The notes under the pieces are model-generated. The model saw only the letters and a program-made list of their open reading frames with translations. It was not told where the DNA came from and made no database searches. The translations under genes and the position numbers were made by a program. A stretch of DNA of 64,000 nucleotides from Lachnospiraceae bacterium (GTDB lineage: Bacteria > Bacillota > Clostridia > Lachnospirales > Lachnospiraceae): NCBI GenBank assembly GCA_036310185.1, contig JAXJSH010000070.1:59865-123864 (forward strand). The letters run 5' to 3'. Below, piece after piece: positions 33,598 through 40,985 of the stretch. Position 1 is the first letter of the stretch; every line of letters starts with the position of its first letter.

Positions 33598-33600
33598 CAG

Positions 33601-33673
33601 AGCGCGAGACGGGACTCGAACCCGCGGCCTCGACCTTGGCAAGGTCGCGCTCCACCAACTGAGCCACTCGCGC
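33601..33673 (-). tRNA. tRNA-Gly (anticodon GCC)
   Basis: The reverse complement folds as a cloverleaf: acceptor GCGCGAG/CTCGCGC, D arm GCTC-AGTTGGTG-GAGC, anticodon stem CGACC/GGTCG with loop TTGCCAA, T arm GCGGG-TTCGAGT-CCCGT, discriminator U. No encoded CCA. Confidence 0.95.
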
Positions 33674-33756
33674 ATATGTTGTTTCGGAAGTTTTGCTTCC
33701 CACAACCCTTATTTAATTGCCAAACGAAAAACTTCAAATCATCAAAGCTTTTCAAG

Positions 33757-33829
33757 AGCGCGAGACGGGACTCGAACCCGCGGCCTCGACCTTGGCAAGG
33801 TCGCGCTCCACCAACTGAGCCACTCGCGC
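33757..33829 (-). tRNA. tRNA-Gly (anticodon GCC), identical second copy
   Basis: The 73-nt sequence is identical to the copy at 33601-33673, separated by an 83-nt spacer. Confidence 0.95.
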
Positions 33830-38928: not shown

Positions 38929-38966
38929 TGGGACCGTCGCGAAAATCGCACGGTCCCAGACTTTTT
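38929..38966 (+). terminator. Rho-independent terminator of the GntR-ABC operon
   Basis: Stem TGGGACCGT/ACGGTCCCA with extra inner GCG/CGC pairs, followed by GACTTTTTAC. Confidence 0.65.
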
Positions 38967-39003
38967 ACATTATGCATCTTTATGATTCTCAAACATGCAA
39001 CGG

Positions 39004-39546
39004 TTATCTTTTACTTAAATCAGTATCTTTCTCGCTAAACTGTCTCTCAACAATTTTCACATTCCCCTTATACGTTTGTCGAATCATTCTCTCCAAATTG
39101 GTATACTCTGGTGAAGCTTTCAAATTTGGCGTAGAAGATGTAACAATTGCTCTCGCATACACATGACTAAACTTTCGAAAAACATCTTTATATAATATCA
39201 AGGTTCCTTTCAGTTGTTCTAATGCTTTTTGCACGTTAACCCCTTTCAATTCTGTTAAAACAGCAGTCAATTCCGAATCATCCACAACATAAAAGTAATC
39301 ACATTTGTTTGTATGTGGAGGCACTGTATTGTCCTCAACAATAATACCATTATCCATTTTATATAAAATCACATGGTTCTTTTTAGTATTTTCCAATATA
39401 TACTTTTTCTTGCTTTCTTCGCACTTTACAGCAGAACGATTGTCCGATGACTCAATGCAAACAGATTGATTTCTATTATCACATTCAGCTAACGAAATCC
39501 CCGCCAATTGCCCGTCTATACATTCTTGCAATTTTTTACAAATCAT
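39004..39546 (-). CDS. Hypothetical 180-aa protein with PD-(D/E)xK-like motif (putative nuclease partner of the ATPase)
   Basis: The ATG overlaps the ATPase stop (ATGA). Alternating beta-like segments HVILYKMDNGIIVED, KCDYFYVVDD and TAVLTELKG are followed by the helix VQKALEQL. This gives D83/D89-x-E99-L-K101, which matches the D...ExK layout. The gene is AT-rich. Confidence 0.6.
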   Translation of the reverse strand: MICKKLQECIDGQLAGISLAECDNRNQSVCIESSDNRSAVKCEESKKKYILENTKKNHVILYKMDNGIIVEDNTVPPHTNKCDYFYVVDDSELTAVLTELKGVNVQKALEQLKGTLILYKDVFRKFSHVYARAIVTSSTPNLKASPEYTNLERMIRQTYKGNVKIVERQFSEKDTDLSKR

Positions 39547-40850
39547 TCGTCTATCTCCATATCAATCAATTCTTCTAGCTCACTATTTGTAATTGAAGAC
39601 ACTTCATCAATATAGCTTGTACTTATCATATGACTTTCTTCATCCAATAACGATTCCATTGTTTTTTCAAATCTTCCGATTTTGAAAGCTACAAAATTAC
39701 CATAACTCACTCTTAAATTTCTGGGAATTATAACCTTTCCATCTTTCGAGTGTGCATTTTCAACTTTCTCAGAATATAATAAAATGTTTGTAGAAGTAAG
39801 AATATATGGACTATGCGTTGTAATAATAACTTTACTATTTGTAACATTTACCATCAGTGAAATCAGACTGATAATATCTTTTTGAGCAACAGGAAACAAG
39901 TGTGCTTCCGGTTCTTCTATTACAATGAAAGATTTTTTCTTTTCCAGTATAATTACAAAAGCCAACATTAATATCCATAAAGCTTCCTGCTGTCCTGATG
40001 ACCCATACATTAACTTAACCCAATGATATTCATCAAAATAAATTTTTTCTCCATCATTTTCACTTGTATAATCAGCTTTAAGAATCTTTTTGATTAATTC
40101 ATACGCATATTCCAGTGCTACATTATTTACCTGTCCTTTTACCGTCTTAGTATAATCTTTCACCATTTCCGGAATTTTTGTTCCAAACTTGTTTTTTGTA
40201 GTTCTTATCAGCTTTATAAATTCCTGCATGGTTAAATCCATTTCATCAACAGATACATCCTGCAGCTGTTCCGACATGGTAGCCAGCAAACTTCTTCCGG
40301 CAGGTACATATATAATATCCATTTCATTTCCGAATGACGCAATTAACGCTTCATTCAAATGACGCTTCATTACACCTAATGCTGTAATGTTATCCATAAT
40401 AGAACTAACTTCGCTGTTCAATTTATCTAAAAACATGTCAGCAGATTCATCTATCAACTGCAATATCTCATTTTTCAATATAGGATCAAAAGAAAAACGC
40501 ACATAACCATCCTGATTCAAAAATATACTGATTTTTTTACCAGAAAAATCATATAAAATTTTAAATTTTTGCATATGTTTTGTTTTTCCGAAACACCCCA
40601 TAAATTGTCTGGTCAAATATTTTAAATAGTTATTAAAATATTCATTTTTATGATTCTGGGTAAACTGTTCTGAACTCATCAAAAAATCCAATGTATAATC
40701 TCTGATTTTCTGACAAAAATACACCACTTTACAAATTGTACTTTTTCCAGAAGCCTGCGCCCCAATAAAGATTTGAAAATTTTTGTTTAAATCAACCTTT
40801 GCCTCACGAACAGGCCCGAAATTTCGAATGATAATTTCATTTTTTCTCAT
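39543..40850 (-). CDS. ABC/SMC-fold ATPase (AAA_15/AAA_21-like)
   Basis: 435 aa. Walker A GAQASGKST (aa 30-38), VPAGRS (aa 182-187), signature-like SSGQQE (aa 284-289), Walker B FIVIEEPE (aa 308-315), H-loop TTHSP (aa 344-348). About 245 aa are inserted between Walker A and the signature. Confidence 0.85.
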   Translation of the reverse strand: MRKNEIIIRNFGPVREAKVDLNKNFQIFIGAQASGKSTICKVVYFCQKIRDYTLDFLMSSEQFTQNHKNEYFNNYLKYLTRQFMGCFGKTKHMQKFKILYDFSGKKISIFLNQDGYVRFSFDPILKNEILQLIDESADMFLDKLNSEVSSIMDNITALGVMKRHLNEALIASFGNEMDIIYVPAGRSLLATMSEQLQDVSVDEMDLTMQEFIKLIRTTKNKFGTKIPEMVKDYTKTVKGQVNNVALEYAYELIKKILKADYTSENDGEKIYFDEYHWVKLMYGSSGQQEALWILMLAFVIILEKKKSFIVIEEPEAHLFPVAQKDIISLISLMVNVTNSKVIITTHSPYILTSTNILLYSEKVENAHSKDGKVIIPRNLRVSYGNFVAFKIGRFEKTMESLLDEESHMISTSYIDEVSSITNSELEELIDMEIDE

Positions 40851-40895
40851 AATCTGCGCTTCCTAACATCTTTTTATTTACTATTCAATACAAAA

Positions 40896-40924
40896 ATTAT
40901 ATGAGATATTATTTTAATTTACAA
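40896..40924 (-). promoter_or_regulatory. Near-consensus sigma-A promoter of the two-gene island (TTGTAA-17-TATAAT)
   Basis: Minus strand: TTGTAA (40919-40924), 17-nt spacer, TATAAT (40896-40901), about 45 nt upstream of the ATPase ATG. RBS AGGAAG. Confidence 0.55.
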
Positions 40925-40957
40925 TGATATTTTAAAAATAAATATTTTTATACCAAA

Positions 40958-40985
40958 AGGCCCCCGCTGTCACCAGCGGAAGCCT
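40958..40985 (-). terminator. Possible terminator after the amidase gene
   Basis: Stem CCGCTG/CAGCGG plus outer AGGC/GCCT pairs. The T-tract on the minus strand is weak (CCTTTTGGT). Confidence 0.4.

Follow-up and report, generated by a model that had tools for sequence, protein, structure and literature searches.

What is the role of a 180-residue protein that is encoded directly behind an ATPase gene and belongs to no curated family? The question is raised by a locus in a stretch of 64,000 nucleotides from Lachnospiraceae bacterium (GenBank assembly GCA_036310185.1, contig JAXJSH010000070.1, positions 59,865 to 123,864 of the forward strand), referred to herein as the window, whose own numbering is used throughout. 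An earlier note, made from the letters of this DNA, had treated the protein as an orphan, had found its central part compatible with a restriction-endonuclease fold, and had suggested that the protein would in that case be the effector and might dock onto the ATPase by its N-terminus. The analysis reported herein makes it likely that the 180-residue protein acts as the nuclease in an anti-phage module of two genes, where the other gene encodes an ATPase resembling PtuA and AriA. The two genes are as follows.

39004 to 39546, minus strand: gene of the 180-residue partner protein, a predicted PD-(D/E)xK nuclease effector, taken from the list of open reading frames.
39543 to 40850, minus strand: gene of a 435-residue ABC/SMC-type ATPase, a putative sensor or regulator, identified from its open reading frame and motifs.

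Scans of the 180-residue protein against Pfam and NCBIfam matched no family, sequence searches of the PDB, started once from its sequence and twice from profiles, returned nothing relevant to it, and its sole match in PHROGs was phrog_12848 (5e-4), a family of unknown function. A word-indexed search recovered 141 homologues, all of them from Lachnospiraceae and either annotated as 'hypothetical protein' or left without a name. A profile search of 1.84 billion cluster representatives recovered 1451 with E<=1e-3, of which 355 have E<=1e-10, and the family spans Bacillota and Bacteroidota (the 1451 clusters, like the 120 diverse representatives used below, were defined at 50% identity). With 141 close homologues, 1451 clusters and a weak match to the PADLOC candidate model PDC-M29B (7.5e-7, 27 bits, over residues 35-159, that is, the core), the protein can no longer be called an orphan. 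The statement that it has no recognizable family holds for the curated libraries, none of which annotates this family.

The pattern of conservation in this family singles out a small set of residues. In 92 close homologues, C3, C9, C22, C30, C42, D65, G67, D72, D83, E99, K101, G102, Q111 and R132 are invariant. Among the diverse representatives, D65, D83, E99, K101, G102 and Q111 are each present in 120/120, followed by C82 (118/120), R132 (117/120), Y49 and P140 (113/120 each) and E44 (111/120, with Asp in six more). The same six columns are invariant in a 64-sequence alignment that reaches down to 25% identity, and all six residues are retained in the most distant gene pairs (L047, L049 and L055 to L057). 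At the columns of E52, E71, D72, D89 and D90, the commonest residue accounts for at most 47 of the 120 sequences. Among the catalytic candidates put forward by the earlier note, D83, E99 and K101 are accordingly the conserved ones; E71, E52, D89 and D90 are not conserved, and conservation extends instead to two other acidic residues, E44 and D65. The codons of the putative active site were read directly from the DNA: D83 is encoded at 39298-39300 (gat), E99 at 39250-39252 (gaa) and K101 at 39244-39246 (aaa).

The small protein, with a predicted mass of ~21 kDa, was modelled with AlphaFold2 (AF2) from the 92-sequence alignment, and the model reached a predicted local distance difference test score (pLDDT) of 93.1 and a predicted template-modelling score (pTM) of 0.90. 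Three parts can be distinguished.

39391 to 39546, minus strand: N-terminal module, residues 1-52, with C3, C9, C22, C30 and C42 and the near-invariant E44, Y49 and N53; referred to below as the cap.
39127 to 39390, minus strand: predicted nuclease core, residues 53-140, from conservation, the AF2 model and the hhalign alignment to HSDR_N.
39007 to 39126, minus strand: C-terminal part, residues 141-180, from AF2 secondary structure and conservation.

In classical PD-(D/E)xK enzymes, an Asp heads one strand of a hairpin and an ExK motif ends the next, after which a helix follows. The modelled core has the Asp at the start of a strand and the ExK on the next strand, as this arrangement demands. 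Strand 58-63 is followed by a D65-G-G turn, C82-D83 comes just before strand 84-89, strand 93-102 ends in E99-L-K101-G102, and helix 105-118 holds A108 and Q111; strand 128-135 then carries R132, and P140 closes the core region. The cap is modelled as helix 6-15, helix 27-30 and strands 31-35, 39-44 and 47-52, and the C-terminal part as helix 146-159 and a beta-hairpin of strands 163-173 (pLDDT 87-97), with L151, G161, N162 and E172 conserved. The last 40 residues, which had been described as Lys/Arg-rich and might bind nucleic acid, are only mildly basic (9 Lys/Arg versus 6 Asp/Glu), and they are folded in the model rather than forming a disordered tail.

Comparisons with known folds and families point in the same direction. 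The top Foldseek matches of the model in the PDB and BFVD are mostly PD-(D/E)xK nuclease domains, all of them weak, and include Mus81-Eme1, XPF, NucS (2vld), EcoO109I, the N-domain of Rpb5, an ERCC4 protein and an Mrr protein. A lax Pfam scan of 64 diverse members gave recurrent matches to HSDR_N (nine members, best 4e-4), HSDR_N_2 (eight), COR-B (five) and NucS_C (two); the D...ExK...Q segment lies within the HSDR_N-type matches of individual members and within a DUF2726 match of one, and one family member matches the Shedu SduA model at 9e-5. The family profile was then aligned by hhalign with 18 HsdR N-terminal domains from related genomes; a search of the window's own genome for NucS_C, meant to supply comparison sequences for NucS, found no loci. 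The alignment with HsdR had a probability of 68.7% (P 4.6e-5, 55 columns), and the control, in which the same profile was set against an unrelated ATPase alignment, had a probability of 0.24% (P 0.25). It pairs D83 with the catalytic Asp of HsdR (R-x-D-V), E99-x-K101 with I-E-L-K, and A108/Q111 with E-A-x-x-Q.

With HSDR_N, NucS_C and DUF4263 of Shedu, the small protein has in common the motif D...hELK(G/R)...A..Q. However, it is a standalone protein of 180 residues with neither the fused helicase motor of HsdR nor the N-domain of NucS, it carries an N-terminal Cys cap and a C-terminal helix-hairpin as extra elements, and its similarity scores to these families all lie below the curated thresholds. 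A QxxxY motif is known from HsdR and RecB; in the small protein, Thr115 occupies the position of the Tyr (Q111 +4). The PD-(D/E)xK assignment is well supported by sequence and model, though not proven, and the nearest branch of the predicted nuclease appears to be that of the HsdR N-domain, NucS and Shedu. The restriction-endonuclease fold proposed earlier thus gains support from the strand-hairpin-helix-strand order of the model, from the nature of the best, if weak, Foldseek matches and from the alignment with HsdR. Of the conditions that the earlier note had named as refuting it, the two open to computation, loss of D83, E99 and K101 among homologues and an unrelated predicted fold, both came out in its favour.

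The ATPase encoded upstream matches AAA_15 (6.5e-28) and AAA_21 (3.7e-14) of Pfam. It contains a Walker A motif (G30-x4-G35-K36-S37), a signature (S284-S-G-Q-Q), a Walker B motif (I-E312-E313-P-E315) and an H-loop (T345-H-S-P), all of which are invariant in 30 ATPase homologues, and it is predicted from these motifs to be a catalytically competent ABC/SMC-type ATPase. Its AF2 model (pLDDT 79, pTM 0.83) has PtuA (8sux, 9.3e-8, TM 0.42-0.47) and AriA (8v46, 1.5e-7) as its closest folds in the PDB, with further matches to the retron-associated PtuA, OLD, GajA and the heads of Rad50 and SMC. As modelled, the ATPase belongs to the PtuA/AriA/OLD structural class.

The two genes travel together. A pairing scan with one genome per species yielded 49 loci, mostly in Lachnospiraceae (Dorea, Hungatella, Acetatifactor, Eisenbergiella, Blautia, Fusicatenibacter and Roseburia), plus Capnocytophaga and Prevotella. 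Wherever the ATPase match was near full length, that is, at least 380 residues, the ATPase gene was found directly upstream on the same strand with an overlap of 4 or 11 nucleotides (37/37 loci). These 37 loci include Prevotella, whose ATPase is ~25% identical, and the bacterial bin L050 (~23%). The ATPase gene of Capnocytophaga (L047) is likewise directly upstream, and further distant pairs have the same ATPase-then-nuclease arrangement. In the window, the ATG of the 180-codon frame overlaps the TGA of the ATPase frame by 4 nucleotides (ATGA), and a GGAG lies 9 nucleotides upstream of the nuclease-gene start codon. Translational coupling is therefore likely, and the two genes probably form a translationally coupled module.

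One of the systems closest to this pair is so far a candidate for defence. PDC-M29 corresponds to cassette CAS_00123, in which the ABC ATPase FAM_00005 is followed by FAM_02872, and it is among 145 candidates predicted by 'guilt by embedding' (Payne et al. 2024, bioRxiv 10.1101/2024.01.29.577857). No paper naming PDC-M29 was found in the library searched. The likeness lies in the two-gene order, an ABC ATPase and then a small protein of ~165 residues, as well as in the ATPase itself: PDC-M29A matches the window ATPase at 1.6e-21 in three stretches, the best of which covers residues 304-432, and matches ATPases of the family over their full length in Prevotella (5.7e-55) and Capnocytophaga (1.5e-32). 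The pair, whose two genes match the A and B models of this one system, appears to be a distant relative of PDC-M29. One difference is that the Lachnospiraceae clade has a four-Cys cap, whereas the shorter PDC-M29-like proteins of Bacteroidota are without it.

The closest validated analogue is HEC-02, a pair of an ABC ATPase and a NERD PD-(D/E)xK protein that is reported to protect against phage (bioRxiv 10.1101/2024.01.29.577857). In both cases an ABC ATPase is encoded beside a separate protein of the PD-(D/E)xK superfamily, which in the window is a predicted member. However, the small protein matches neither a NERD nor a HEC-02B model, and the predicted nuclease here is of the HsdR-N/NucS type and bears a Cys cap. 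HEC-02A is not among the best 25 of the 113 PADLOC families matched by the window ATPase, and it partially matches the relatives L046 (3.7e-15) and L049 (9.7e-10).

With Septu, the pair has in common a two-gene make-up of ATPase and nuclease (predicted in the window) and, as judged from the model, an ATPase fold that is closest to PtuA. PtuB of Septu is an HNH nuclease, whereas the small protein has no HNH motif or match and is predicted to be of the PD-(D/E)xK type instead. The NCBIfam PtuA model scores 35.9 bits against a cut-off of 500, and in sequence the ATPase resembles that of Septu in the ABC motifs alone (~50-60 residues; PDB phmmer, 8e-5 to 1.5e-3), so that the pair does not belong to Septu. 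The likeness to PARIS lies in the AriA-like fold of the ATPase. AriB of PARIS is a tRNA-cleaving Toprim/DUF4435 nuclease of ~35 kDa; the small protein, at 21 kDa, is predicted to be of the PD-(D/E)xK type and has no Toprim signature, and the pair does not belong to PARIS either. The 'AriA' matches reported by PADLOC are to generic AAA_15 and AAA_21 models, as seen from their lengths (373 and 304, versus 374 and 304 for Pfam).

How might such a module act? The ATPase oligomer of PARIS holds its nuclease until a phage trigger binds, according to one report (PMC11464382). By analogy with PARIS, Septu and HEC-02, an oligomer of the window ATPase may bind, hold or gate the small protein. In the latter, D83, E99 and K101 would form a metal-dependent active site within a PD-(D/E)xK domain at residues ~53-140, joined by E44 and/or D65 and by the helix residue Q111. 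A phage-derived cue, or the depletion or binding of ATP, could then shift the state of the ATPase, upon which the nuclease would be released or activated and would cut phage or host nucleic acid, be it DNA or RNA, and this cutting would stop phage propagation. DNA is the substrate of most PD-(D/E)xK enzymes, and RNA or tRNA is that of PARIS and retron-Eco7. The nuclease activity, its substrate, the physical complex with the ATPase, the trigger and the anti-phage phenotype are drawn from such analogies rather than observed. Like the earlier note, we infer the effector role and the docking of the N-terminus on the ATPase.

The surroundings of the module bear on whether it serves defence. The features concerned are as follows.

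38990 to 40960, no strand: low-GC island of ~1.95 kb, with a GC content of 0.28-0.34 versus 0.42-0.49 in the flanks, holding the promoter-like element and the two genes only.
40896 to 40924, minus strand: promoter-like TTGTAA-17 nucleotides-TATAAT upstream of the ATPase gene, found by a consensus scan (10/12 matches; a consensus match only).
38930 to 38966, no strand: GC-rich hairpin GGGACCGT...ACGGTCCC with T-runs on both sides, found by direct reading of the sequence.

The GC content is 0.28-0.34 over ~39000-40950 and rises to 0.42-0.49 on both sides, and the island is inserted between the terminators of a permease gene and an amidase gene. In a genome of the same genus (G002), the order pepF-gntR-ABC-permease, ~195 bp, amidase-guaB-orf165-groEL is as in the window, but without the two genes. 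This empty site (L061:6600-6796, G002:C29) consists of ~195 bp with two terminator-like hairpins between the amidase and ABC-permease genes. The window copy is thus an insertion, very probably acquired horizontally. No integrase, transposase or flanking repeat was seen at the island. The hairpin at 38930-38966 sits between the convergent ABC-permease gene and the nuclease gene and is probably a bidirectional terminator, a call that is tentative because the terminator scan missed it.

The distribution of the pair is sporadic: among 41 related genomes, 2 have it, and among 401 sampled across the phylum, 6 do (1.5%). Decay is frequent, as seen in a frameshifted nuclease gene (L036), a frameshifted ATPase gene (L038) and partial copies (L041 and L043 to L045). 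Moreover, an in-frame deletion of residues ~57-97 recurs, which removes D65 and D83 and leaves the ATPase intact (P0107/P0108, L025 and L040). The deleted nuclease has 142 residues (P0107, P0108, P0113 and P0120; L025:1570-1986 and L040:1292-1709) and recurs in uncultured Acetatifactor, where dozens of contigs carry it. It may represent either an inactivated effector that the lineage has retained or an assembly-independent decay product. In a metagenome-assembled genome of a Lachnospiraceae bacterium from wild mouse (L029:6610-8595), the nuclease is 50% identical to that of the window and its module adjoins the same GntR - ABC ATPase - permease operon, with a different gene on the other side; that the operon is shared on one side only suggests an old insertion or a preferred site.

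Elsewhere, genes associated with defence are found beside the pair, namely AbiH (L007), AbiEi/AbiEii (L049), and GmrSD_N with an AAA_21-DUF3696 ATPase (L046). One distant pair (L062:1734-8130, G061:C33) is embedded in a BREX locus, with pglZ and brxL following directly downstream. In that assembly, the ATPase gene of the pair and pglZ are each split into two open reading frames, the ATPase translation has runs of X from masked or N bases, and another AAA_15/21 ATPase is encoded farther upstream (850-1656).

Several results weigh against a defence nuclease. The best Foldseek match has an E value of 0.048 and a TM score of ~0.3 over ~100 residues, so that none is significant, and every Pfam match falls below the gathering score (18-19 bits versus 25). 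The hhalign alignment is of moderate probability and no longer than 55 columns. PDC-M29B is matched weakly by the small protein and, at E<=1e-3, not at all by four relatives. The window copy is surrounded by housekeeping genes, none of its neighbours being another defence gene, and a tblastn search of phage and plasmid collections returned no homologue.

Three other explanations were weighed against the proposed nuclease effector. NucS, Mus81/XPF and Hjc recognize mismatched or branched DNA, and the weak structural matches of the small protein are mostly to structure-specific nucleases of this sort (Mus81, XPF and NucS). As the ATPase also resembles Rad50 and SMC heads and the window copy lies among housekeeping genes, a PD-(D/E)xK-like subunit might, instead of being the killing effector, sense nucleic acid or DNA structure and load or activate an SMC/Rad50-like ATPase on phage DNA, or the pair might serve repair or housekeeping. 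We consider this unlikely. The D...ExK motif and the Gln are invariant across more than 100 divergent clusters, a constancy normally kept only under selection for catalysis. Moreover, the sporadic distribution, the low-GC island, the empty site in a close relative and the frequent decay fit an accessory, costly defence gene rather than a repair gene, and the neighbours in other genomes are defence genes.

It seems quite improbable that the pair is a toxin-antitoxin-like or addiction module which serves mainly to stabilize its own DNA segment, the nuclease acting as toxin, the ATPase neutralizing it, and phage not being sensed. The tight gene overlap and the conserved gene order would suit such a module, as would the recurrent in-frame deletions and frameshifts in the nuclease gene, and AAA_21 of Pfam is annotated as an 'AbiEii toxin, type IV TA (toxin-antitoxin) system' family. 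However, the ATPase retains all motifs of ATP hydrolysis together with the large insert domains typical of the sensors of Septu, PARIS and Gabija, and the module is absent from the plasmid and phage collections searched. The embedding of one relative in BREX and the Abi systems beside others point to immunity, though the two roles can coexist.

A degenerate Toprim domain as in AriB, OLD and GajA, with IVED and VVDD as the acidic motifs, is hardly tenable. In its favour, Toprim nucleases are frequent partners of such ABC ATPases (PARIS, OLD, Gabija and HEC-01), and the window protein does have E71-D72 and D89-D90. This reading, already ranked as less likely by the earlier note, is rejected because these four residues are not conserved (at most 47/120). 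In addition, the small protein has no match at E<=1 to a Toprim, DUF4435 or RloB model, no Toprim structure appears among the Foldseek matches, and the invariant residues build the D...ExK hairpin instead.

What is new here is a variant of the ABC-ATPase-plus-nuclease system that has a Cys cap and no curated family; its general design is already known. Pairs of an ABC ATPase and an effector, such as Septu, PARIS, Gabija and HEC, are among the most widespread designs of bacterial immunity, and work continues on how the individual ATPases detect infection and control their nucleases. To this class the family adds a compact predicted effector of 21 kDa, confidently modelled and represented by ~1450 clusters in gut Bacillota and Bacteroidota, and it provides a PADLOC candidate with a mutable set of predicted catalytic residues (D83, E99, K101 and Q111, plus E44 and D65). 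Recognition of the family would improve the annotation of defence systems in gut Lachnospiraceae. Even if it proves ordinary, it would be one more type of effector for a known class.

A distinctive feature of the Lachnospiraceae proteins is the cap. The five cysteines listed earlier for the N-terminal part (C3, C9, C22, C30 and C42) are all present in the translation, and C82, which had not been listed, is a sixth. C3, C9, C22 and C30 co-occur in 99/120 representatives, and in most of the remaining 21 the N-terminal segment is missing or re-patterned. C42 varies independently, being replaced, usually by Val, in 11 sequences that retain the other four, and C82 is near-universal even in sequences without the cap. 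The cap is absent from distant pairs of Capnocytophaga, Prevotella and two Bacillota genomes (L047, L049, L055 and L056), which retain D65, C-D83, ExK and Q111. The pattern suggests that C3, C9, C22 and C30 probably form a single metal site, an accessory to the nuclease core, in which the metal would most likely be structural, either Zn or an Fe-S cluster. In one subclade (P0163, P0168, P0177, P0183, P0191 and P0204), the homologues are 200-220 residues long, and a Lys/Arg-rich insertion of ~25-45 residues separates the second Cys of their cap from the third.

In the iron staple of Cas4, AddB and RecB, four cysteines bracket the nuclease domain, one at its N-terminal and three at its C-terminal side, and a QhxxY motif is present. 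A staple of this type was rejected for the small protein because the Cys positions do not fit: all four cluster cysteines are N-terminal and there is no conserved C-terminal Cys. In addition, the small protein has no match to a Cas4 or RecB model, and the residue at Q111 +4 is Thr, not Tyr.

The distribution of the cap is matched by that of one Cys of the ATPase. Among the 13 pairs that could be compared, residue C86, which lies in a conserved M-G-C-F-G, is present exactly where the partner nuclease has an N-terminal Cys cluster and is absent in all four pairs whose nuclease is without it. The comparison, in which the window ATPase was set against L047, L049, L055, L056 and L057 among the pairs, is a small sample, and the pattern is only a lead because it is confounded by phylogeny. 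A regulatory metal centre, for example an Fe-S cluster or a site completed by C86 of the ATPase, is a speculative and rather doubtful function for the four-Cys cap. If true, the cap would make release of the nuclease depend on cellular redox or metal status or on the conformation of the ATPase, and a PD-(D/E)xK defence effector would be gated via a metal-cluster switch. We know of no ABC-ATPase defence system with this kind of gating.

Two minor observations concern other genes. In Acetatifactor aquisgranensis DSM 110981, a protein of 730 residues (L010:7175-9367, minus strand) that combines a kinase (AAA_33), a phosphoesterase and a T4-type RNA ligase is encoded beside the module. It resembles the RNA-repair enzyme Pnkp and was seen in no other locus; as a hint of an RNA target it was dropped because it rests on a single locus. 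In the window itself, two tandem tRNA-Gly(GCC) genes lie at 33600-33673 and 33756-33829 on the minus strand, 83 nucleotides apart.

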